Positions 2,831 to 62,473 of a stretch of DNA of 64,000 nt are shown one piece after another. Positions within the stretch are counted from its first letter, which is position 1. Every line of letters starts with the position of its first letter. The notes beneath the pieces are model-generated. The model ran no database searches. It had not been told where the DNA came from and saw only the letters and a program-made list of their open reading frames with translations. Source of the stretch: Candidatus Saccharimonadota bacterium (lineage in GTDB: Bacteria > Patescibacteriota > Saccharimonadia > Saccharimonadales > JACOTW01); the NCBI GenBank assembly GCA_016178135.1, contig JACOTW010000001.1:228-64227 (forward strand), given 5' to 3'. The translations under genes were made by a program, and so were the position numbers.

Positions 2831-3289
2831 ATGAAACGAATTACACCTAACCTATGGTTTGACGGCAATGCCAAAGAGGCAGTGGATTTTTATGTATCTG
2901 TTTTCCCTAAGAGTAAGATAACTTCGACAATTTATTATCCAAAAACCAAAGAAGAAGGCTTGGCTGATTTTCAACTAGAGTTGGCAGGCAAAGCTTTGAC
3001 TATTGAGTTTGAACTAAGCGGCAACCCCTTTGTGGCTATCAACGCTGGCCCAGAGTTTAAGTTCAATGAGTCCGTGTCTTTTTCTATACCATGTAAAGAC
3101 CAGGACGAGATTGACTACTACTGGGGGAAACTTTCAAAAGTACCAGAAAGCGAGCAATGTGGTTGGTGCAAAGACCAGTATGGGCTGAGCTGGCAAATAG
3201 TACCGGAAAACATGGAAGAGTTGATGAAGCGTCCAAATGCCTACGCCAAGATGATGGAAATGCATAAGCTCGTTATTGCCGACTTTTAA
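2831..3289 (+). CDS. VOC-superfamily PhnB-like protein (3-demethylubiquinone-9 3-methyltransferase-like domain)
   Basis: N-terminus MKRITPNLWFDGNAKEAVDFYVSVF and C-terminal CGWCKDQYGLSWQIVP are typical of this family. Confidence 0.75.
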   Translation: MKRITPNLWFDGNAKEAVDFYVSVFPKSKITSTIYYPKTKEEGLADFQLELAGKALTIEFELSGNPFVAINAGPEFKFNESVSFSIPCKDQDEIDYYWGKLSKVPESEQCGWCKDQYGLSWQIVPENMEELMKRPNAYAKMMEMHKLVIADF

Positions 3290-6433: not shown

Positions 6434-7237
6434 ATGAAAAAAACTTTGAGAAAATTATATCTGCGTAAGTCGAGTTTATCCGACTTACGCAAAACTATCT
6501 CATTCCCAGATCAATTCAATCCAGCGCTGGTCATTTTAGTTACTATTGGCGTTTATTTCGCTGCTCAAATTATCGGCGGTACATTAATTTCGATTTACCC
6601 AATTGTTCGAAGATGGGATAGGGTTCAAACTATGGATTGGCTAAGCAATTCATTGGTAGCGCAATTTTTTACAGTGGTTTTTATTTACGGATCAATATTG
6701 TTTTTGCTCCGTGTTTTTTTCAAAAAATACGGTGGTGGATTTCGGACTATAGGATTCAAGAAACCAAAATGGACGGATATGGGTTTTGCTTTGGCGGGCT
6801 ACGCCGCTTACATCGTGGCTTACATTGTTATTATAATATTAATTGGCCTGTTTATACCCGAGCTTAATCTTAACCAAAAACAGCAACTTGGGTTTTCTAC
6901 CGCCACAACTGGACCTGGCCTAATACTGATATTTATTAGTCTGGTAGTATTGCCGCCACTGGTTGAAGAATTATTAATGCGTGGTTTTTTGTACACCGGG
7001 CTAAGGGCTAGACTTCATAAAATGCCGTCGGCCATAATAACCAGTATTGTGTTTGCTGTTGGTCATCTACAGTGGGGCTCGGGTAACGCATTGCTCTGGA
7101 CTGCCGCAATAGACACTTTTATTTTGTCTATGGTGCTTGTTTATTTACGCGAACGAACCGGTGGCCTAGGGGCTTCGATTGGCTTACATATGATTAAAAA
7201 CTGCGTAGCGTTCGCGAGTTTGTTTATTTTGCGGTAG
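6434..7237 (+). CDS. CPBP family intramembrane glutamic endopeptidase (CAAX protease-like)
   Basis: Polytopic membrane protein with the EELLMRGF motif and later conserved H residues (FAVGH, IGLHMIKN). Confidence 0.8.
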   Translation: MKKTLRKLYLRKSSLSDLRKTISFPDQFNPALVILVTIGVYFAAQIIGGTLISIYPIVRRWDRVQTMDWLSNSLVAQFFTVVFIYGSILFLLRVFFKKYGGGFRTIGFKKPKWTDMGFALAGYAAYIVAYIVIIILIGLFIPELNLNQKQQLGFSTATTGPGLILIFISLVVLPPLVEELLMRGFLYTGLRARLHKMPSAIITSIVFAVGHLQWGSGNALLWTAAIDTFILSMVLVYLRERTGGLGASIGLHMIKNCVAFASLFILR

Positions 7238-7246
7238 AATTACCCC

Positions 7247-8668
7247 ATGTCCGATAAAAAACAACTACCACCTAAAACTGGCGATTTATCTGATTGGTAT
7301 ACTACGATTATTCAGTTGGCCGATTTAGCCGATTATGGTCCAGCAAAAGGTACAATGATAATTAAGCCTTATGGCTATGCTATTTGGGAGATGGTACAAC
7401 AGGCCATGAATCCTATCATTAAAGCTCGCGGTGTTGGTAACGCCTATTTTCCTTTATTGATTCCAATGAGCTTGCTTGAGAAAGAGGCTAGTCATGTTGA
7501 GGGGTTCGCTCCGGAGTTGGCTGTGGTTACTCATGGGGGTGGAGAAAAATTACAAGAGCCACTCGCCGTACGCCCAACTAGTGAAACGATTATGTATAAC
7601 TCGTTTGCCAAATGGGTTCAGTCGTGGCGGGATTTACCGATTTTAATGAATCAATGGAACAACGTTGTGCGTTGGGAAAAACGAACAATGCCATTTTTGC
7701 GTACTAGTGAATTTCTATGGCAAGAGGGACACACGGCACACGCTACCCATAAAGAAGCGATTGAGATCCAGAAATGGGCCATGGACATGTACGCTAAAAT
7801 CTACCAAGACTATTTTGCTATTGATGGCTACGTTGGGCTTAAGTCATCAACCGAGCGGTTTGCTGGTGCCGATACAACCTTGACCTACGAGACACTTATG
7901 CCAAGTGGTAAAGCCTTGCAGTCATGTACTTCACATGATCTGGGGCAGAATTTTTCTAAACCTTTTGAAATAACATTTCAGGACAACCAAGGCAATGATA
8001 GTTTTGTTTGGCAGACAAGCTGGGGTTTTAGCACCAGATCAATTGGTGGGCTGATCCTGGCTCATGGCGATGATAATGGCCTGCGTCTACCTCCGAAATT
8101 AGCACCAGTACAGGTTGTCATTGTACCTGTAAGGGTAGAGCCAGAGATAATGACCCATTGCCAAGAATTATTAGACAAACTCACGAAAGTTGGCATGCGA
8201 GTAGTTATAGATGACAGAGATGATGAAAGTTTTGGTTTTAGACTTAATAAGTGGGAGGTTAAAGGCACACCAATCATCTTAAAAATAGGTCAAAAAGAAG
8301 TTTCAGAAAGTGTTATTACGGTCAAAAGGCGCTTTGATGGAAAAGAAGACCAAGTTTCTACTAAAGAAGCAGCCGAAAAACTTCAGCAGTTACTTGAATC
8401 AATTCAGGTCATGATGTTTAAGGCCTCCCAGGATTTCATAGCAAGTAATACCCGAGAAGCCAAGGACTACGAGGAGTTCAAAAAGATATTGGCCGAGCAC
8501 AAAGGGTTCATCAGGGTCAATTGGAGTGATAATCCAGAAGTTGAAAAGCGAATTAAAGACGAAACCAAGGCAACCAGCCGTTGTTTGATCGCGGAAGATC
8601 AGCCAGGGCGGAACTTTGTAACTGGGGAACCTACTTCGCAGGTTTGGCTTTTTGCACAAAGTTATTGA
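7247..8668 (+). CDS. proS: Prolyl-tRNA synthetase, archaeal/eukaryote-like type
   Basis: 473 aa with class II aaRS motifs (RPTSET, FLRTSEFLWQEGHTAH, SWGFSTR). TAGAAT lies 6 nt upstream of the ATG. Confidence 0.95.
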   Translation: MSDKKQLPPKTGDLSDWYTTIIQLADLADYGPAKGTMIIKPYGYAIWEMVQQAMNPIIKARGVGNAYFPLLIPMSLLEKEASHVEGFAPELAVVTHGGGEKLQEPLAVRPTSETIMYNSFAKWVQSWRDLPILMNQWNNVVRWEKRTMPFLRTSEFLWQEGHTAHATHKEAIEIQKWAMDMYAKIYQDYFAIDGYVGLKSSTERFAGADTTLTYETLMPSGKALQSCTSHDLGQNFSKPFEITFQDNQGNDSFVWQTSWGFSTRSIGGLILAHGDDNGLRLPPKLAPVQVVIVPVRVEPEIMTHCQELLDKLTKVGMRVVIDDRDDESFGFRLNKWEVKGTPIILKIGQKEVSESVITVKRRFDGKEDQVSTKEAAEKLQQLLESIQVMMFKASQDFIASNTREAKDYEEFKKILAEHKGFIRVNWSDNPEVEKRIKDETKATSRCLIAEDQPGRNFVTGEPTSQVWLFAQSY

Positions 8669-13035: not shown

Positions 13036-13366
13036 CTGGACCTGTCGCAAAGCTCCCCCATCCCCAGACCAATTCATCTCGATTGGTAGCGGTCTGTCTT
13101 CTCTCGATGTAGCAAAGAGCTAATTAACATCTATCTGTCGGCTAAAATCTTCAGGTCTGTCACTTTTATTCTGTTTTTTGTTTTCGGTTCGTACCGATAG
13201 GTACGACCAAAAGCCAAGAAAACAGAATAAAAATCATGACAGCTGCTAAAGATTCGCTATCAACAGATAGATATTAATTAGCTCTAAGGCTACCTCTCCT
13301 TCAGCCAAACCACTCCCAACTCGAGCTGATTTAGCCTGGGAACGGGCGATTTTGCGACAGGTCCAG
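13036..13366 (+). mobile_element. PE-A element (gamma subtype) with nested PE-E
   Basis: TIRs CTGGACCTGTCGCAAA/TTTGCGACAGGTCCAG with flanks TATA/TGTA. Confidence 0.85.
13116..13285 (+). mobile_element. PE-E palindromic element nested in PE-A
   Basis: TIR AGAGCTAATTAACATCTATCTGT / ACAGATAGATATTAATTAGCTCT with a central hairpin GGTTCGTACC-GAT-AGGTACGACC. A second, truncated copy lies at 34046-34182. Confidence 0.8.
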
Positions 13367-13530: not shown

Positions 13531-14574
13531 ATGAAAAAAATTGATAAACACATTGAGATAGTGCGCTCCTCTGTGGCTAGTTTTAATTCTATGAGCGGGG
13601 TATCCTGCCATGATGCCCAGGCAGTTTTGGCTAAACACTATGCCCATGTCGGTATTACTATGATTGACAATTTGTCGGACCTGGAAGCTTTAGTGGACCT
13701 AAAGCCGGATCTGGTTTTTTTAGGTATGAAATTTGTGCCCATTGCTCCCGATCTAGGACTAGAAGATCCAAACAAAATTTGGGTAACCAGCTATCTGGAT
13801 GAACACGGCATAGTCTATACGGGGTCAAGCCAGCTCGCACACGAACTGGAACTAAATAAGCATCTGGCAAAACAGCATGTCCATGATGCCGGTTTGGCTA
13901 CATCTGAATTTTTTGTAGTACCCCTAAATCAAGCCATACCTAGTCACAACCTACCTCTAACTTTTCCTTTATTTATAAAGCCAACCAATCGAGGTGGTGG
14001 TGTGGGCATTGATAGTAAATCAGTGGTGCATACGCCTTTTGAATTTGATGAAAAAGTGGCGTTTATTGCAAAAAACTTACAATCGGATTCATTGGTAGAA
14101 AAATATTTGGATGGCCGAGAATTTAGTGTGGCAATTTTGAAACAAGAATATTCCACTGAATATTCAATAATGCCACTAGAATTGATTGCTCCTAAGGATG
14201 AATATGGCGCACGTATTTTGAGCGCACGTATAAAAGCTGCCGATACGGAACGTTTCATGGAGGTTACTGACGAGGATATTAAGTATCGAATTTCAACACT
14301 GGCAATTGATGTTTTTCATGCTTTAGGCGCGCGCGATTATGGACGTATAGATATTAGAATGGACACATTTGGGGTTCCGTATTTTCTGGAGGCAAACCTT
14401 ATACCCAGTCTACTCAAAGGCTATGGCAACTTTCCTAAGGCCTGCCTACTTAACATAGATCTGGATTATGAATCCATGCTTCTTAGTATTGTGCGCCTAG
14501 CTTTCTGTCGTAGCCCAAATAGTACTACTTACGTGCCGTATCTGGCTACTTCGAACATAGCTTACGCAGTCTGA
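13531..14574 (+). CDS. D-alanine--D-alanine ligase family ATP-grasp enzyme
   Basis: ATP-grasp core LFIKPTNRGGGVGI and ARDYGRIDIRMDTFGVPYFLEANLIPSL. The start is taken at MKKIDKH. Confidence 0.8.
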   Translation: MKKIDKHIEIVRSSVASFNSMSGVSCHDAQAVLAKHYAHVGITMIDNLSDLEALVDLKPDLVFLGMKFVPIAPDLGLEDPNKIWVTSYLDEHGIVYTGSSQLAHELELNKHLAKQHVHDAGLATSEFFVVPLNQAIPSHNLPLTFPLFIKPTNRGGGVGIDSKSVVHTPFEFDEKVAFIAKNLQSDSLVEKYLDGREFSVAILKQEYSTEYSIMPLELIAPKDEYGARILSARIKAADTERFMEVTDEDIKYRISTLAIDVFHALGARDYGRIDIRMDTFGVPYFLEANLIPSLLKGYGNFPKACLLNIDLDYESMLLSIVRLAFCRSPNSTTYVPYLATSNIAYAV

Positions 14575-14578
14575 TATG

Positions 14579-14832
14579 CTAGACCAATCGCAAACTCTCT
14601 TTCGGACACGAGTTTCGCACTTTTCCATAGCCCCAGATGACACCTGACAAGCTACAGCCACTCACTCCTCACTCAACATAGGCTATAGCCCAAGCCTCCC
14701 TCGGATTGAACAACTGTAACCAGCCAGCTGCAACCTGGCATCAATGGCTAAGTGCGAAACTCGTGTCGGATAAAAACAGTTTTCGCTCGAACTGATTCGC
14801 CCTGGGAACGACGGATTTCGCGACAGGTCCAG
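14579..14832 (+). mobile_element. Internally deleted PE-A carrying a nested PE-B
   Basis: A degenerate left TIR CTAGACCAATCGCAAA joins directly to the right half ...CTGGGAACGACGGATTTCGCGACAGGTCCAG. It begins 4 nt after the stop of the Ddl-like gene. Confidence 0.75.
14606..14765 (+). mobile_element. PE-B element, full copy
   Basis: TIRs ACACGAGTTTCGCACTT/AAGTGCGAAACTCGTGT with a 3-bp TSD (CGG/CGG). Confidence 0.85.
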
Positions 14833-14876: not shown

Positions 14877-15521
14877 ATGCAAAAGGCGATGTTTGGGGCG
14901 GGGTGTTTTTGGGGAGTGCAGTATTATTTTGACCAAGTACCTGGGGTAAATAAAACTACCGTAGGCTATAGCGGCGGGCATACCAAAAATCCGTCTTATG
15001 AAGAAGTTTGTACGCATACTACTGGTCATGCGGAAGTGGTTGAAATTGAGTTTGACCCAAGTAAAGTCAGCTATGAAACACTTGTAAAACAATTTTTTCG
15101 GATGCACGACCCCACACAATTAAATAGGCAAGGTCCAGATGTAGGCGATAGCTATAGCCATCCCAAAACAAAATGACCATTTTTGTCTGCGCCTGATGAT
15201 CTAAAAACTACTTTTTTGTCTGCAGCATATCTACGGATATGCTTTAGCCAAAGAAAGCTAGTTTTTAGACTCATCATCCATCACTCAAAATTTGGTCATT
15301 TTGTTTTGGAATGGCTATATCGTTCGGCGATTTTTTATTTTGATGACGATCAAAAGCAAATTGCCGGAACAATTAAAGCGACCACGCAAAATAGTTCTGA
15401 AAAGCCCATCGTAACAGAAATAACTCAAGCTATGGAGTTTTACAAAGCTGAAGATTACCACCAAAAATACACCGAACGCACTGGTCGCGGCATGTGCCAC
15501 GTGCCATATAAAGAGGTATAG
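14877..15521 (+). pseudogene. msrA: Peptide methionine sulfoxide reductase MsrA interrupted by a PE-C insertion
   Basis: GCFWGV...[11 protein letters not shown] ends at 15155 and RSAIFYFDDDQKQ... resumes at 15321. The junction matches the conserved GxxYRSAIY. The 165-bp insert is in frame but contains a TGA at 15174-15176. Confidence 0.8.
15155..15317 (+). mobile_element. PE-C element, full copy, inside msrA
   Basis: TIRs TAGCCATCCCAAAACAAAATGACCA / TGGTCATTTTGTTTTGGAATGGCTA with a TA target-site duplication (15153-54 and 15318-19). Confidence 0.85.
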
Positions 15522-17269: not shown

Positions 17270-18121
17270 ATGAAAAAATACTATATAGGTGTTACGATTC
17301 TTATAGCAATAACCCTAGGGCTAACTGGCTACATCTTTGTGGGGGCTACTGCGGAAAAGCAAGATCGACAAACAGAGAAAAAAGCTCAAGAAATCGTTAC
17401 AAAATTAAATAGCCATATTAGAACTTCTCAAAAAATTCCGGAAAACCTTACGGAAGCGGGTATTAAAGACGTGCCATCAACCATTAGCTACTCTAAACAA
17501 TCATCAAGTGAATATGAGTTTTGCACGACCTATAAGTCGTCTAAAGGCTATGGATATAGTGATCCTAGCTCAATTCTAAGTGGCATGGCAACACGACAAT
17601 TGGGTGGTTATGATACAGAATCTTCGAATAGCGTCTATAAGTCCAGTGGTCTAAGTAGTCTATATGTAAACTACACTCATAAAAAAGGTAAAAATTGCCA
17701 AACGGTCAAGCCGTATCTATATAACTATGATTCAACGGATAATTTGTATTATAATAAGCCCAACAATTCCAGTTCCTCGTCCCTGTCATCATCTAGTCAG
17801 GATGTTGAACGAAAGACTGACATAATGGCACTGCAATCACAACTGGAAGATTATTATAATCAGAACGGAGTTTATCCTACGGTTAATGACATTAATAGTG
17901 CATCATGGCGTAGCATTAATATGAAAAACCTAAATAAAGAATATTTACGCGATCCGTTAAGTGGAAGTTATGCACTTACAAGTATTCCAATGAAAAATTA
18001 CTATTCCTATGAGGTATTGGGATCGAATGGAAAGGCTTGTATGTCTACAGACTGCGCATCCTACACTTTAAGTGCCAAATTAAGCGACGGCACTTCGTAT
18101 GTCAAGCAAAGCCTGATATGA
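17270..18121 (+). CDS. Membrane-anchored secreted protein with a pilin/PulG-like C-terminal fold
   Basis: An N-terminal TM anchor and a C-terminal DVERKTDIMALQSQLEDYYNQNGVYP pattern typical of type IV pilin-like domains. It lacks a canonical prepilin G/FTLxE site. Confidence 0.4.
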   Translation: MKKYYIGVTILIAITLGLTGYIFVGATAEKQDRQTEKKAQEIVTKLNSHIRTSQKIPENLTEAGIKDVPSTISYSKQSSSEYEFCTTYKSSKGYGYSDPSSILSGMATRQLGGYDTESSNSVYKSSGLSSLYVNYTHKKGKNCQTVKPYLYNYDSTDNLYYNKPNNSSSSSLSSSSQDVERKTDIMALQSQLEDYYNQNGVYPTVNDINSASWRSINMKNLNKEYLRDPLSGSYALTSIPMKNYYSYEVLGSNGKACMSTDCASYTLSAKLSDGTSYVKQSLI

Positions 18122-18921
18122 ACTATAGGGTGGAGCGTAGCCAACCCTATAAACCTGGGCAAAAAACGTCATTTAAAGTGAGCCGATCAAAAATTGAGCT
18201 ATTCACGCAGTGTCAGCGTTGTTTCTGGTTAGATGCTCGGCTTAAGATTAAGCGTCCCAACGGACCGCCATTTCAAATCAATAAAGCCGTTGATGAATTG
18301 TTGAAAAAAGAATTTGACGGTTATCGTTTGAAAGGCAAGGCTCACCCTGTAATGATCGAATTTGGGGTTGCCGCTATTCCATTCGCTCATGCCAGTCTGG
18401 ATGTTTGGCGAACCAATTTTACGGGAGTGGCTACCCTGTATGAACCTGCGAATTTGCAGGTTTTTGGTGCTGTTGATGATATTTGGGTAAATAGCAACGA
18501 CGAACTCATAGTAGTAGACTACAAAGCCACTGCCAAACAAAGCGATGTTACTCTAGATGCCGATTGGCAGATGAGCTATAAGCGGCAGATGGAAGTTTAC
18601 CAGTGGCTATTACGTCAAAATGGCTTTAAGGTGAGCGATACTGGCTACTTTGTTTACGCTAATGGTCGGCTGGATGTTGATGGGTTTTATAACAAAATAG
18701 AGTTTAGAACAAAAATCATTCCATACACCGGAAATGATGCCTGGATAGAGCCAACCCTGGGGAATATGAAAGATTGTCTAGAGGCTGATATGCCACAAGT
18801 CGGTAAGGCTGCCATGGGTGGCGATTGCGATTTTTGTACCTACGCCAGAGCCCGCTCGGAGCTGACAATAGCGGCACTTAACTGGACTTACGCAAAGCTC
18901 CCCCATCCCCAGACCGACTAA
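18118..18921 (+). CDS. PD-(D/E)XK nuclease, Cas4/RecB-like with a 4-Cys cluster; C-terminus and stop derived from PE-A
   Basis: CQRCFW near the N-terminus, DYKATAKQ core, EVYQW, and C-terminal CDFCTY. The last 13 codons (NWTYAKLPHPQTD*) lie inside the PE-A copy starting at 18882. Confidence 0.65.
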   Translation: MNYRVERSQPYKPGQKTSFKVSRSKIELFTQCQRCFWLDARLKIKRPNGPPFQINKAVDELLKKEFDGYRLKGKAHPVMIEFGVAAIPFAHASLDVWRTNFTGVATLYEPANLQVFGAVDDIWVNSNDELIVVDYKATAKQSDVTLDADWQMSYKRQMEVYQWLLRQNGFKVSDTGYFVYANGRLDVDGFYNKIEFRTKIIPYTGNDAWIEPTLGNMKDCLEADMPQVGKAAMGGDCDFCTYARARSELTIAALNWTYAKLPHPQTD

Positions 18922-19040
18922 TCTCGGCTGCAAACAGTTTTTTCTCTCTCGATGTACCTCCCTGGTACCTCTCCTTCAGACAAAACTGTTTTCGCTCGAG
19001 CTGATTCGTCCTGGGAACGAGGGATTTTGCGTAAGTCCAG
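18882..19040 (+). mobile_element. PE-A element (alpha subtype), full copy
   Basis: TIRs CTGGACTTACGCAAA/TTTGCGTAAGTCCAG with flanks TTAA/TTTT. Confidence 0.85.
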
Positions 19041-19067
19041 TTTTAAGCAAGCCAAAAAGCCATCTTG

Positions 19068-30559: not shown

Positions 30560-31741
30560 GTGCGACACTTTCTGCAAAGTGAGGCGTGGCAGCGATTTCA
30601 GCAAGCGCTTGGCAAAGAAGTAATTAGCCAGCGCGGACATGGCTGGTCGTTTATGGGTGTTATTGAGCAGCCTCGGAAACGTGGTGGTCGCTTGAATCGG
30701 CGGCTGTATTTGCCTTATGGGCCAACTTGTCAAGATGAAATTGCTCTTGGGGAGGCTCTCCAGGCAATCAGAAAAATAGCAAACCAAAAAAAAGTAGTAT
30801 ATGTTCGCCTGGAGCCTATTATTCTTTCCGGTCAAACAATTGATCTGAAAAAGTACGGCTGTCAACCAAATAAGCACCCCACGCAACCAGATAGAACTTG
30901 GGTACTGAATCTTGCAAAGGACGAGGAAAATCTGTTGGCAAATATGAGTGGGACCAACCGGAACCTTTGGAATACTCATAAAAATAAAGGACTGTCATTC
31001 CAGATTGATTACGATAAAACGGACTTAAAAGACTTTTTAGCGATGCTACACGCGATGGCTGGGCGTAAAGGTCTAAAAACACACGACGACAGTTATTTTA
31101 AGACGATGGCCAGAAGTTTATTTCCCGAAAAAGATGCCGGATTAGCTATTGCTTTGTTGCATGACAAACCAATTGTGGCGGCAATTTTCTTTGATGATCC
31201 AGTGGCTGGGATTAGATATTATGCCCATGCTGGGTCATTTGAAGAGGCTCGGAAAATCCAGGCCAACTCTCCACTTTTGACTTTTTTGATACTAGACGCC
31301 AAAAAACGCGGCTTCAAGGAGTTTGACTTCTATGGCGTCTCTCCGCCTGGTGACGAGTTACACCGCTGGGCTGGACATAGCAAGTTTAAACGCTCATTTG
31401 GTGGTGTAGACAAAGAATACCTAGGAACCTGGGAGTTACCGGTGAGACGCGATTTATTTATCTTGGCCCAAGTTGCTCGCAAATTCAGTAAACTGGACTT
31501 ACGCAAAGCTCCCTCATCCCCAGACCGACTAACCTCGGCTGCAAACAGCTTTTCCTCTCTCGATGTACCTCCTGGTACCTCTCCTTCAGACAAAACTGTT
31601 TTCGCTCGAGCTGATTCGTCCTGGGAACGAGGGATTTTGCGTAAGTCCAGTAAACCTCTTGCCAAAGCTTCAGGGAGTAAGGTAGTATTTAAAGGAATAA
31701 TAAAAAGAGGTGATACAAGAGGTGGCAAAGCAACCGACTAA
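30560..31741 (+). CDS. FemAB-family peptidoglycan bridge aminoacyltransferase with a C-terminus read through a complete PE-A copy
   Basis: N-terminus MRHFLQSEAWQRFQQALG and the FemAB pattern. From about codon 312 the ORF reads through all 158 bp of PE-A (LDLRKAPSSPDRL...ILRKSS) and on to 31741, overlapping pyrG. Confidence 0.7.
   Translation: MRHFLQSEAWQRFQQALGKEVISQRGHGWSFMGVIEQPRKRGGRLNRRLYLPYGPTCQDEIALGEALQAIRKIANQKKVVYVRLEPIILSGQTIDLKKYGCQPNKHPTQPDRTWVLNLAKDEENLLANMSGTNRNLWNTHKNKGLSFQIDYDKTDLKDFLAMLHAMAGRKGLKTHDDSYFKTMARSLFPEKDAGLAIALLHDKPIVAAIFFDDPVAGIRYYAHAGSFEEARKIQANSPLLTFLILDAKKRGFKEFDFYGVSPPGDELHRWAGHSKFKRSFGGVDKEYLGTWELPVRRDLFILAQVARKFSKLDLRKAPSSPDRLTSAANSFSSLDVPPGTSPSDKTVFARADSSWERGILRKSSKPLAKASGSKVVFKGIIKRGDTRGGKATD
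31493..31650 (+). mobile_element. PE-A element (alpha subtype), full copy, inside the femAB-like ORF
   Basis: Perfect TIRs CTGGACTTACGCAAA/TTTGCGTAAGTCCAG with a perfect 4-bp TSD (TAAA/TAAA). Confidence 0.9.
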
Positions 31742-33819: not shown

Positions 33820-34182
33820 CTGGACATGTCGCAAAAGCCCCCATCTCCAGACCGACTAACCTTGGTTACAAACGGCTTTTCTTCTCTCGATGTATTCTTT
33901 AAGCTCTCCTTCGGATAAACTGGACCTGTCGCAAAACTCCTCCATCCCCAGATCGAATTCTATCGGCTACTCTTCGAGTCTGAGCCTGAGGGCTCACCTC
34001 AGAGTCGAAGACAAACGGTTTTTCTTCTCTCAATGTAGCCAAGAACTAATTAACATCTATCTGTCGGCTAAAATCTTTAGGTCTGTCACTTTTATTCTGT
34101 TTTTTGTTTTCGGTTCGTACCGATAGGTACGACCAAAAGCCAAGAAAACAGAATAAAAATCATGACAGCTGCTAAAGATTCG
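33820..34182 (+). mobile_element. Stack of truncated elements: PE-A left part, a second PE-A left part with PE-S, and a truncated PE-E
   Basis: PE-A #1 (33820-33919) is cut by PE-A #2 (from 33920). PE-A #2 contains PE-S (33971-34012) and then PE-E (34046-34182), which ends abruptly. No right halves are present. Confidence 0.75.
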
Positions 34183-34207
34183 TAAGCAGTAAATAGGAAC
34201 AACAAAC

Positions 34208-36087: not shown

Positions 36088-36100
36088 ACTATCTAGTATA

Positions 36101-36260
36101 CTGGACTTACGCAAAGCTCCCTCATCCCCAGACCGACTAACCTCGGCTACAAACAGTTTTTCCTCTCTCGATGTACCTCCTGGGTACTTCTCCTTCAGAC
36201 AAAACTGTTTTCGCTCGAGCTGATTCGCCCTGGGAACGAGGGATTTTGCGACAGGTCCAG
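36101..36260 (+). mobile_element. PE-A element (alpha subtype), full copy
   Basis: Perfect 4-bp TSD (TATA/TATA). On the minus strand its tip reads GTCCAGTATACT, then 7 nt, then the methyltransferase ATG. Confidence 0.9.
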
Positions 36261-36268
36261 TATAGCTA

Positions 36269-36312
36269 TAGCCATCCCAGAACAAAATGCCCATTGTGTT
36301 TTAGCATAGCTA
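36269..36312 (+). mobile_element. PE-C miniature copy (44 bp)
   Basis: TAGCCATCCCAGAACAAAATG...CATTGTGTTTTAGCATAGCTA with a TA/TA duplication. Confidence 0.6.
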
Positions 36313-43916: not shown

Positions 43917-43990
43917 CTGGACCCCTTGCAAAATAACTCCGTAACCCACCCAGCAGGTGCCCTTTTTGCCTCAAACCGAGCCAAAGCCTT
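43917..43990 (+). repeat. Degenerate PE-A-like fragment abutting the glyQS stop
   Basis: CTGGACCCCTTGCAAAATAACTCC... follows TAAA, which contains the stop codon. Only the left end is recognisable. Confidence 0.3.
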
Positions 43991-44028
43991 CGCCCCGTAA
44001 CAGATGTTATGCTACGATCGGCAAGAAT

Positions 44029-44598
44029 CTATTTTGATCTGGGTGATGAGCTTTTGGGTCGACTATGATTACGATACGTTAATTCGCCCCGATGTTGATC
44101 CAGCCTTTCGATATATTTTTCAAATCTATTAAACAGGTTGGAATAGTGTCCGCTTGGTGCCAGTAGCTTCAGAAGTTTGCCTTTTTCTTCCAGATACTCA
44201 ACAAGGGTATAGAAATCGCCATCGCCCGAAATAATAACGGCTTTATCATAATTTGGAAGCTCTTTCATTGCCCACAAAACCAAATCAGCATCAATGTTGC
44301 CTTTTACTGGTTTTTTGTCTTCATCAGGGTTATTTACATCTTTGGTTTCTGGTTGCGGTTTGGTGATATCGAAAGTTGGCTTCAATACCACGGCATAGCC
44401 AGCCTCATTAAGTTGTCTGTACATATCTTCAAACTCCGGTACGTAACCGATGAACATGAACGCCTTGGTAACCCCATATTTATCGGCCAGAAATTCCCGA
44501 AATTTTTTCCAGTCCATCTTCCAGCCAAGTTTTCGCGTACTGATATTCAGATTTTGACTGTCAATGAACGCGTAAATTTTTCTATCACTAATATTCAT
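44029..44598 (-). CDS. NYN-domain (LabA/DUF88-like) putative RNase
   Basis: YAFIDSQNL...GNIDADLVLWAM...VIISGDGDFYTLVEYL acidic motifs. Confidence 0.8.
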   Translation of the reverse strand: MNISDRKIYAFIDSQNLNISTRKLGWKMDWKKFREFLADKYGVTKAFMFIGYVPEFEDMYRQLNEAGYAVVLKPTFDITKPQPETKDVNNPDEDKKPVKGNIDADLVLWAMKELPNYDKAVIISGDGDFYTLVEYLEEKGKLLKLLAPSGHYSNLFNRFEKYIERLDQHRGELTYRNHSRPKSSSPRSK

Positions 44599-44635: not shown

Positions 44636-44794
44636 CTCGACCTACCCAAAACTCCTCCATCCCCAGATCGAATTCTATCGGCTACAAACAGTTTTTCTTC
44701 TCTCGATGTAGCTAAGGCTACCTCTCCTTCAGACAAAACAGTTTTCGCTCGAGATAATTCACTCTGGGAACGGACGATTTTGCGACAGGTCCAG
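44636..44794 (+). mobile_element. PE-A element (beta subtype) with a degenerate left TIR, abutting the typA stop codon
   Basis: CTCGACCTACCCAAAA...TTTTGCGACAGGTCCAG. The right flank TTTA contains the complement of the typA TAA stop. Confidence 0.8.
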
Positions 44795-48493: not shown

Positions 48494-48961
48494 ATGAGTA
48501 AAAGACCTCAAAACGCAACATTAGGACAAAAAGCATTATATAACTCTGGCGCCAAACAACTGGGACCTGACCTTACGGCCGTTTTATCCGATACAGAAGT
48601 CCGCAAAGCAGGCGCGGAACGTTATAGTAGAAGGGTGCTTGGTCTTGTAGCTGTGACGGCCCTAACCGCTATGGGTTCGTATGCTGTGAATAGTAAAAGT
48701 AATGAACAGCAGGGAGACATAGTGAACAATCGGCTTAAAAACATAGGAGTAGTAGCCGAAACTACACCCCAGACGTTGCCAACCATTGTTCATGAAGTCA
48801 AGCCGGGCGAGAATCCTCGAAGTATAGCTGATCAATATAACGCTGATCCTGTTGATGCCGATAACATGGCGAACAGCATTCAGGCACGAGATGGTGTTGA
48901 GGCTCCAAACGGTCAGACATATATACATCCTGGTCAAGAAATCAAAATCACTGGGCGATAG
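48494..48961 (+). CDS. Membrane-anchored protein with a LysM-like C-terminal domain; its stop codon lies in a PE-C terminus
   Basis: HEVKPGENPRSIADQYNA...IHPGQEIKI. TATAAT lies 6 nt upstream of the ATG. The stop TAG is the first 3 nt of TAGCCATTCC. Confidence 0.5.
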   Translation: MSKRPQNATLGQKALYNSGAKQLGPDLTAVLSDTEVRKAGAERYSRRVLGLVAVTALTAMGSYAVNSKSNEQQGDIVNNRLKNIGVVAETTPQTLPTIVHEVKPGENPRSIADQYNADPVDADNMANSIQARDGVEAPNGQTYIHPGQEIKITGR

Positions 48962-49030
48962 CCATTCCAAAATGAAATGACTGGTTTTTGAGTGAGTGAT
49001 GGACGACGATAAGTCTAAAAAACTGTTTAG
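48959..49030 (-). repeat. PE-C right half, reverse orientation
   Basis: TAGCCATTCCAAAATGAAATGACTGGTTTTTGAGTGAGTGATGGACGACGATAAGTCTAAAAAAC is colinear with the reverse complement of 15250-15317. Confidence 0.7.
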
Positions 49031-49054
49031 GTAAGTCGAGTATAGCGTGCATAG

Positions 49055-61670: not shown

Positions 61671-61691
61671 ATCGCCTAAGTATACACTCTA

Positions 61692-61736
61692 CTGGACTTA
61701 CGCAAAATCACTCGTTTCCAGACCGAATCAGCTTCA
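61692..61736 (-). repeat. PE-A fragment (reverse orientation, truncated)
   Basis: CTGGACTTACGCAAAATCACTCGTTTCCAGACCGAATCAGCTTC. Confidence 0.65.
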
Positions 61737-61738
61737 GT

Positions 61739-61909
61739 CTAGTCACTGACTATCTTATAGCCAACCCAAATACCGGCAATAGCACCTATAGTACCTAGTA
61801 ATATTCCCCAAAGACCAAAAAAATTACCGTGATCCAGTAAGCTTCCCAGCCAGCTACCAACGCTGGAGCCAACAAAAACCCCCAGATAGATCATAAATTT
61901 ATCGCTCAT
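61739..61909 (-). CDS. Small two-helix membrane protein
   Basis: MSDKFMIYLGVFVGSSVGSWLGSLL...GILLGTIGAIAGIWVGY. On the minus strand GTCCAGTATACT is followed by 7 nt and then the ATG at 61909. Confidence 0.45.
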   Translation of the reverse strand: MSDKFMIYLGVFVGSSVGSWLGSLLDHGNFFGLWGILLGTIGAIAGIWVGYKIVSD

Positions 61910-61973: not shown

Positions 61974-62295
61974 CTGGACCTGTCGCAAAGCTCCCCCATC
62001 CCCAGACCAATTCATCTTGGCTGGTAGCGGTCTGTCTTCTGTCGATGTAGCTATGGCTACCTCTCCTTCAGCCAAACCACTCCCAACTCGAGCTGATTAA
62101 CTGGACTTACCCAAAACTCCTCCATCCCCAGATCGAATTCTATCGGCTACAAACGGTTTTTCTTCTCTCAATGTAGCTATGGCTACCTCTCCTTCAGACA
62201 AAACAGTTTTCGCTCGAGATAATTCACTCTGGGAACGGACGATTTTGGGTAAGTCCAGTTTAGCCTGGGAACGGGCGATTTTGCGACAGGTCCAG
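61974..62295 (+). mobile_element. PE-A (gamma subtype) host copy interrupted by a second PE-A
   Basis: The left part ends ...ACTCGAGCTGATTAA and the right part resumes TTTAGCCTGGGAACGGGCGATTTTGCGACAGGTCCAG. It is colinear with the uninterrupted copy at 13036-13366. Confidence 0.85.
62101..62258 (+). mobile_element. PE-A (beta subtype) nested inside PE-A
   Basis: TIRs CTGGACTTACCCAAAA/TTTTGGGTAAGTCCAG (a compensated G/C change in both TIRs) with flanks TTAA/TTTA. Confidence 0.85.
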
Positions 62296-62473
62296 TATAA
62301 AGACCTCTTGTTTGCGACGTCAGGTGCCAACCAGAGCATGTCGTACAGCGATAAACGCGGATCGGTTTTTTTAATCTTCTCAAGGGGTTAATTTTTTTTA
62401 GAGTTGCTTGAGCGGCCACATCGCTAGTGAAGCGTACTTTCTGTTTGCAGACATTTCTAGAGTTATTATTCAT
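62183..62473 (-). CDS. Small CxxC (zinc-ribbon-like) protein whose C-terminal ~37 codons and stop come from PE-A
   Basis: The native part is MNNNSRNVCKQKVRFTSDVAAQATLKKINPLRRLKKPIRVYRCTTCSGWHLTSQ. The ORF enters PE-A at 62295 and runs on to 62183. Confidence 0.4.
   Translation of the reverse strand: MNNNSRNVCKQKVRFTSDVAAQATLKKINPLRRLKKPIRVYRCTTCSGWHLTSQTRGLYTGPVAKSPVPRLNWTYPKSSVPRVNYLERKLFCLKER

Follow-up and report, generated by a model that had tools for sequence, protein, structure and literature searches.

We analyzed a 64,000-nt stretch of the genome of Candidatus Saccharimonadota bacterium (hereafter the window), in which a short repeated element, PE-A, meets the 3' ends of many genes, among them a FemAB-family open reading frame (ORF) that runs through a complete copy. 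With a probability of roughly 85%, we conclude that PE-A is a recently mobile miniature transposable element with inverted repeats (MITE) that accumulates on or just after stop codons, and that the position of insertion decides whether the stop is kept or the C-terminus altered. In our proposal, PE-A is a DNA transposon of the non-autonomous kind that has many copies in this genome and moved there recently. A gene end of TAA-A or TAG-A is itself a target site, and intergenic spacers are very short, so that surviving copies would accumulate on or just after stops. A duplication beginning with the stop (TAAA, TAGA) would keep it and leave the protein unchanged, as proposed for typA, glyQS, a 56-aa gene and a LysM gene, and a landing a few codons upstream, or one that splits the stop, would let the ORF run into the element. 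As most copies are stop-free in two of six frames, translation would add or swap a tail up to the next stop, with predicted outcomes of 13 aa in place of 7 for a Cas4-like nuclease, +37 aa for a CxxC protein and +82 aa, predicted to be disordered, for FemAB. A preliminary description of this DNA had reported that such elements change C-termini, donate stops or overlap them. All its coordinates were checked and the observation was confirmed; its interpretation was partly supported, the central claim being backed by allele pairs at two genes and ortholog ends at three.

Two public assemblies were compared with the window, GCA_016196105.1 (about 100% identical to it) and GCA_040960765.1 (99.2-99.85% identical; a 654-kb contig), the latter used as the sister strain of the window genome. 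Full PE-A copies are 156-161 nt long, most commonly 158 nt, and have inverted ends (CTGGAC...GTCCAG) with terminal inverted repeats (TIRs) of 15-16 nt; the terminus CTGGACTTACGCAAA, or its variant CTGGACCTGTCGCAAA, stands at both ends. The 15-nt terminus CTGGACTTACGCAAA has 26 matches in the window with up to 3 mismatches, against 1.9 expected. Using a profile hidden Markov model (HMM) built from eight full copies, we found about 25 copies or fragments in the 64 kb, one per about 2.5 kb, and 34 more matches in 63 kb from three other loci (L006-L008) of the two strains, one of which partly overlaps the window region. All repeat families together make up 6.5-7.3% of the window. Window copies are flanked by 4-bp direct repeats (TAAA/TAAA, TATA/TATA, TTAA/TTAA, TTTA/TTTA and TAGA/TAGA), some pairs being degraded, and the target site duplication (TSD) follows a 4-bp TNNA pattern, mostly TWWA. 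A 4-bp duplication of the TWWA type, the target suggested earlier, was confirmed both here and in other genomes of the candidate phyla radiation (CPR). Over its whole length PE-A is an imperfect palindrome, with an RNA hairpin of −71.5 kcal/mol (z=−9.2). It contains no transposase gene, six-frame translation giving short peptides only. Being short, transposase-free, bounded by TIRs and a target duplication, present in many copies and mobile, PE-A is a MITE on every property that we checked. Its ends may resemble those of IS6/IS26, although a 4-bp duplication does not fit the 8 bp of that family.

Elements of like architecture, with duplications TAAA, TCTA, TTTA and TATA, occur in other Saccharibacteria metagenome-assembled genomes (MAGs) and in a CPR2 genome. 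The latter, GW2011_GWC2_39_10, holds two full PE-A-type copies (2957-3116 and 7524-7684 of locus L078), with identical 15-nt termini and TTTA-type flanks, and therefore the family spans more than one CPR lineage. A scan of a genome collection with the 15-nt terminus gave at least nine useful CPR loci among the matches listed; of the matches listed, most fell by chance in unrelated phyla and none came from the source genome. No PE-A match was found in phage and plasmid collections, and Rfam gave no match at the PE-A copy in FemAB.

The strongest evidence for C-terminal change comes from allele pairs, as PE-A presence or absence differs at three loci between strains that are 99.2-99.9% identical. 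The first is the gene for a Cas4-like PD-(D/E)XK nuclease (18118-18921), whose 3' end contains a PE-A (18882-19042, plus strand) that supplies its last 13 codons and stop. The TTAA duplications occupy 18878-81 and 19043-46, with the native stop TGA at 19066-68. Deleting the element and one TTAA predicts an empty allele ending in ...AALKQAKKPS, and the sister-strain protein P0104 (261 aa, 99% identical, no element) ends exactly as predicted. In the window allele, 7 native residues are swapped for 13 element-coded ones, NWTYAKLPHPQTD. The earlier assignment of these 13 codons and the stop (18882-18921) to PE-A is therefore upheld by the translation and by the P0104 allele.

At the second locus, a nested PE-A pair (61974-62295, plus strand; inner copy 62101-62258) is inserted in the TAG stop of a small CxxC gene (62183-62473, minus strand), to which it adds 37 codons. 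The sister strain (locus L008), without the nested pair, reads GGT CTT TAG and encodes a CxxC protein of 59 aa, in agreement with the gain of about 37 codons first read from the window. The window junction reads GGT CTT TAT A followed by CTGGACC..., the TA of the stop lying at the insertion point. A full HMMER search gave 193 matches for the CxxC family, in which the best members have 58 aa and the best homologs end 1-3 residues past query position 56-57; since family members have about 58 aa, the short allele is the ancestral form. At the third locus, about 2-3 kb past the window end, one PE-A lies in frame in the gene for an RluB/RsuA-like pseudouridine synthase of both strains. A further in-frame PE-A, of 165 nt and in opposite orientation, is present there in the sister strain alone (L005 4687-5472 versus L008 10001-10987). 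Counted from the shared ATG, the protein has 279 aa versus 328 aa in the sister strain; the older assembly's own call is shorter, at 261 aa.

The FemAB-family ORF (30560-31741, plus strand) encodes 393 aa, of which residues 1-311 form the native core. This core is followed in the same frame by a complete PE-A copy of 158 nt (31493-31650, plus strand; HMM score 176.9), read in the stop-free +0 frame, between a left (31489-31492) and a right (31651-31654) TAAA duplication, both on the plus strand. The TAA of the left duplication is out of frame, being read AG-T AAA. The ORF then takes 28 codons and a TAA from the DNA between PE-A and pyrG (31655-31741, plus strand), which are present in no ortholog. 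Frames +0, −0 and −1 of this copy are stop-free, the CTGGACTTACGCAAA repeats stand at both its ends, and the element peptide in FemAB reads LDLRKAPSSPDRL...ILRKS.

The ORF matches PF02388 (E=8e-24) through the last position of the profile, at residue 308. Its 90 homologs, 303-345 aa in length, cover only the first ~79% of the query, and all 16 aligned orthologs terminate 0-6 residues past K311, the last residue before the element, including the closest ones (50-62% identity); several, the closest among them, terminate exactly at codon 312. With every ortholog ending at the junction, the 82 extra residues are all lineage-specific. They comprise 54 codons of element plus TSD (162 nt, in frame) and 28 of downstream DNA. 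The stop (31739-41) lies inside pyrG, whose start is called at 31722, giving an overlap of 20 nt. An 82-codon gain through a whole PE-A between TAAA repeats, overlapping pyrG, had been described from the window; it stands against the orthologs, except that only 54 of the codons are element DNA. Compared with element-free orthologs or alleles, the FemAB, Cas4-like and CxxC proteins of the window all end differently, as the preliminary description had led us to expect. An AlphaFold model of FemAB has pLDDT (predicted local distance difference test) values above 85 for residues 1-313 and below 35 for residues 316-393, a part for which the alignment has no sequences, consistent with a disordered appendage outside the fold. 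A protein identical to the window ORF product (P0001) is present in both public assemblies. FemAB relatives share the FtsX-CHAP-S41-FemAB synteny but have no pyrG downstream.

Several observations weigh against our conclusion. The extended proteins are predictions made from nucleotide sequence, from which we infer that they are made and tolerated. Neither the window nor the fetched loci yielded a transposase whose ends match. Filled and empty alleles differ by the element plus 6 nt (CxxC) or plus 7 nt (pseudouridine synthase), not plus 4; either integration departed at times from the canonical form, or deletion produced some of the empty alleles. Stop-overlapping duplications number 3, against 2.0-2.1 expected when all TWWA/TNNA sites of the short spacer before insertion have equal chances, which is no significant excess (P=0.1-0.25). 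At FemAB, no close element-free relative was found, the nearest being 62% identical, and removing PE-A and one TAAA recreates no stop, the ORF keeping the downstream TAA. Target and slippage scenarios for a stop at this junction were tried and rejected, each needing an extra 1- or 4-nt change.

As to the manner in which FemAB lost its stop, we infer from the junction one of two histories: the ancestral stop was lost through a further small change, or the 28-aa tail was present in the ancestor. In the second case the ancestral ORF would have reached 31741, and PE-A would have been inserted in frame, in the style of the Rickettsia palindromic elements (RPEs), without any read-through. This is quite possible, though we lean away from it. 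It would explain why the ORF runs uninterrupted to the same TAA once the element and one TAAA are deleted, and it suits the 162 nt of element plus TSD, a multiple of three, the variable length of FemAB homologs and the in-frame internal PE-A insertions known in other genes. Set against it are the ends of all 16 orthologs at or within six residues of the junction, even at 50-62% identity, and the tail region itself, which holds the pyrG ribosome-binding site and overlaps pyrG. Moreover, a spacer will not infrequently contain 28 open codons by chance, at a rough estimate of ~0.2-0.25.

Elsewhere in the window, the element abuts or overlaps the stop. Next to a PE-A at 44636-44794, the flank 44795-98 reads on the minus strand AAA TAA A followed by CTGGACC, the TAA being the typA stop; the match to the BipA_C domain extends to residue 600 of 608, and therefore the protein end is native. 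The glyQS stop, TAA plus A (43913-16, plus strand), reads CAT TAA A followed by CTGGACC and precedes a diverged relative of PE-A (43917-44064), whose assignment is weaker, the copy being diverged. In both genes Pfam domains extend to the protein ends, and the placement of both stops inside the element flank proved correct, each reading TAA-A before CTGGACC. The NYN gene, which is convergent (44029-44598, minus strand), ends inside the diverged glyQS-side element: the final ~11 codons (RPKSSSPRSK, then the stop) fall there, at 44029-44064. Its NYN domain match ends at residue 151 of 189.

At the 3' end of the LysM gene lies an 80-nt chimeric PE-C/PE-A element (48961-49040, or 48957-49044 with its flanks GATA and TATA; plus strand). 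The LysM stop TAG (48959-61) straddles the junction, its TA belonging to the flank and its G to the element. The idea that LysM uses the TAG of a PE-C terminus as its stop thus holds in that the TAG spans the junction, but the reconstructed empty site is also TAG, so the stop was regenerated without change to the protein, in which the LysM profile extends to residue 152 of 155. A 46-nt mini PE-A (61692-61737; 61688-61741 with flanks, minus strand) has a perfect TAGA/TAGA duplication, in which the TAG at 61739-41 serves as stop for a gene (61739-61909) encoding a putative membrane protein of 56 aa. After the Ddl stop TGA (14572-74) come TATG and a PE-A-type cluster with a nested PE-B (14579-14832; the whole 14572-14832, plus strand), a 4-bp flank and element following the stop directly. 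About 100 nt past the window end, a peptidyl-tRNA hydrolase gene has its last 11 codons and stop in a PE-A (L008 13051-13096; TTTA, then CTGGACTTACG...), and its Pfam domain ends at residue 200 of 222.

The proximity of PE-A to stops is real. In a curated set of all families, 13 of 21 element clusters downstream of a gene begin in the first tenth of the reconstructed spacer. For PE-A, the duplication lies at most 4 nt from the stop in 5 of 10 clusters, against 2.2 expected under a uniform model (P=0.015). This proximity is explained by the target motif together with the tiny spacers. Accordingly, the earlier view that gene ends are preferred landing sites survives insofar as the clustering beats a uniform expectation; by the refuting condition set in the preliminary description, no significant enrichment was seen beyond motif and composition, as the stop-overlap count given above indicates.

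Instead of a stop preference, the pile-up could reflect purifying selection or a useful 3' hairpin acting as mRNA stabilizer, terminator or RNase III site, an account that we regard as doubtful. Such hairpin functions have reportedly been proposed for the REP/BIME (repetitive extragenic palindromic sequence/bacterial interspersed mosaic element) and Correia elements. The great stability of the PE-A hairpin would suit this account, as would pre-insertion spacers of about 20-90 nt with promoter-like motifs near the downstream gene. PE-B and PE-C, with different ends, also abut stops (at XseA, ProRS, heliorhodopsin and LysM), and stop overlaps show no excess over motif availability. However, the stop is part of the duplication (TAAA, TAGA or the TA of TAG) in five or more PE-A cases, which fits a sequence preference. 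PE-A copies also lie in divergent promoter regions and inside genes, and no T-run follows the PE-A hairpin. In this sample targeting and purifying selection are inseparable, purifying selection being an equally good cause.

Among 29 full PE-A copies from at least five genomes, frame +0 is open in 18 and frame −0 in 17; two open frames are found in 19 of the 29, versus 6.6% of shuffles. An insertion of 158 + 4 = 162 nt preserves the reading frame. We wondered whether PE-A is a CPR-wide, coding-compatible selfish element, with its 162 nt and two stop-free frames as family-level adaptations for coding-dense genomes, an idea that we offer tentatively and think rather unlikely. If it were true, insertions would add disordered linkers or tails rich in Ser/Pro/Lys/Arg instead of destroying genes, and PE-A would be a convergent counterpart of the Rickettsia RPEs and a measurable source of protein-length variation among near-identical strains. 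The palindrome couples the +0 and −0 frames, and the copies are young; for this reason open frames are weak evidence for selection.

The +0 element peptide is borne by 11 unrelated proteins, at the N-terminus in 3, internally in 5 and at the C-terminus in 3; they include MiaA, prepilin peptidase, RluB-like, Fmt, CofD-like, response regulator and TatC proteins. The N-terminal cases may be start-codon artefacts, and a C-terminal position in only 3 of 11 weighs against a preference for gene ends. Searching with the 55-aa element peptide yielded nothing beyond five small spurious ORFs of the same organism. We consider it improbable that the peptide is under selection as a domesticated protein module and is not simply junk that is tolerated. 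Its frame is open in most copies, intergenic ones included, and it recurs in proteins of several metagenomes, as a module might. However, the peptide is predicted to be unstructured, it sits at either end or inside unrelated proteins, its insertions are polymorphic between near-identical strains, and the two open frames are coupled in copies that are young.

The possibility that assembly, or longest-ORF annotation around repeats, produced the read-throughs as artefacts can be dismissed almost entirely: the older assembly's contig does break inside an element cluster (window ~34213), several small 'genes' are spurious ORFs inside elements, and N-terminal 'extensions' such as that of an N6 methyltransferase probably reflect start-codon choice, but C-terminal and internal cases do not depend on the start, the FemAB protein is the same in the window and two assemblies, and at the Cas4-like and CxxC junctions the alternative alleles are clean and read as expected.

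In the N6/N4 DNA methyltransferase gene just mentioned, the annotated first 68 residues (36088-36294, minus strand) traverse a PE-A copy and a PE-C fragment, and the true start is likely the ATG directly after the element (MNQAFCILG...). The msrA gene (14877-15521) is interrupted by an in-frame PE-C-type element (~15146-15322) containing a TGA; the halves share a frame but are called as two ORFs, and msrA may be a pseudogene or a split gene. A motif, AAGTGCGAAA(G/C)TC(C/G)T(A/G)T, often followed by ATAAT, lies just upstream of genes for OmdA, heliorhodopsin, FtsE and others (2266, 15540, 26331 and 37735 on the plus strand; 37605, 19082 and 14620 on the minus strand). The motif is also the terminal repeat of the PE-B family, and PE-B ends may carry or mimic an outward-facing promoter.

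Gene calls and Pfam matches show the window to be a dense housekeeping region, mostly on the plus strand, with SecA, RF1, FtsEX, CHAP, S41 protease, FemAB, PyrG, GlyRS, TypA and the mraZ-murG cluster among its genes. The contig end of the older assembly at window ~34213 falls within an element cluster (33820-34182) that has a different arrangement in the sister strain, and element clusters appear to fragment MAG assemblies. The only sub-threshold Rfam matches were hairpin-like ones inside this cluster, at 34072-34180. At window 39217, about 107 nt are absent that are present in both public assemblies (L001 18827-18933; L004 17406-17514). They comprise the xseB ATG and first codons (MVKARYQELN...), and the gap is either a deletion allele or an assembly collapse beside an element.

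Two PE-A-like termini at 6460-6493 face each other across TTTA, in what looks like a fragment or a copy with an internal deletion; they lie just within the 5' end of an Rce1-like gene (called at 6434-7237) and about 30 nt past an M50 protease stop (6429). A 181-nt hairpin-forming insert (13090-13270 and 34016-34196), the two copies of which are 93% identical, lies within PE-A copies, and this points to composite or nested elements with cargo; its weak miRNA-like Rfam matches reflect the hairpin only. A bias in PE-A orientation, suggested by about 14 plus versus 5 minus copies in the window, was discarded, orientation being mixed in three other regions of the genome. The sister strain also has an extra 162-nt MITE of another family (L001 17196-17358), with ends TAGCCCCCGCAAAACAAATTC...GAATTTGTTTTGCGGGGGCTA, at a TATATA site where the window has no insertion (~37750); from this presence and absence, a second family has also been recently mobile.

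Saccharibacteria and other CPR bacteria are viewed as streamlined, gene-dense episymbionts. Here the load of recently mobile MITEs is high, at more than 6% of the window, and elements alter protein lengths between strains less than 1% apart. The proteins affected include a cell-wall FemAB enzyme, a Cas4-like nuclease, a pseudouridine synthase and a peptidyl-tRNA hydrolase. For annotation, this implies that many 'hypothetical proteins' and odd N- or C-termini in CPR MAGs will be element-derived, and for assembly, that contigs break in element clusters. The insertion polymorphisms are usable as markers for strain typing, and the allele pairs offer a natural system in which to ask whether the tails are translated and tolerated. 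Our literature search on Saccharibacteria or CPR with MITEs or repetitive elements found no relevant paper, and a PE-A-type element is apparently undescribed for these bacteria.

Among known systems, REP/BIME elements are about 35 nt long, have no terminal inverted repeats or target duplication, and are mobilized by RAYT (REP-associated) tyrosine transposases. PE-A resembles them in clustering just downstream of stops and in placing RNA hairpins at 3' ends. However, with 158 nt, terminal repeats and a 4-bp duplication, it falls outside that class.

In-frame fusions of MITEs to host ORFs, C-terminal ones included, are well known from RPEs, ERIC, RU-3 and Correia elements. The ERIC/127-bp MITE, RU-3 and the 107-bp Correia/NEMIS element have open frames and are fused to host ORFs (Delihas 2007/2008, PMC2229807); RU-3 in LivJ is a C-terminal MITE fusion, and transcripts of ERIC/RU-3/Correia type form hairpins that are possible RNase III targets (PMC2229807). 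PE-A is likewise a hairpin-forming MITE with open frames fused to host ORFs. In contrast to the 4 bp (TNNA) of PE-A, Correia elements duplicate TA, and sequences and hosts differ; because TAAA/TAAA and TTAA/TTAA flanks next to CTGGAC are unexplained by a TA duplication, PE-A is not of Correia/IS630 type.

The closest parallel lies in the Rickettsia RPEs (Ogata et al. 2000), which, by the summaries in PMC10969869 and PMC2229807, are palindromic, about 150 nt long and found in frame in protein genes. PE-A is like them in being palindromic and about 150 nt long, in having stop-free frames and a small, reduced host genome, in inserting in frame in conserved protein genes as well as in spacers, and in giving unrelated proteins a common peptide. 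PE-A differs in its host, Saccharibacteria/CPR, in its clear terminal inverted repeats, 4-bp duplication and polymorphism between near-identical strains, and in the many copies exactly on stops, which change C-termini rather than internal loops. The likeness is one of analogy, and we treat PE-A as a putative analog of the RPEs, not as a member of them.

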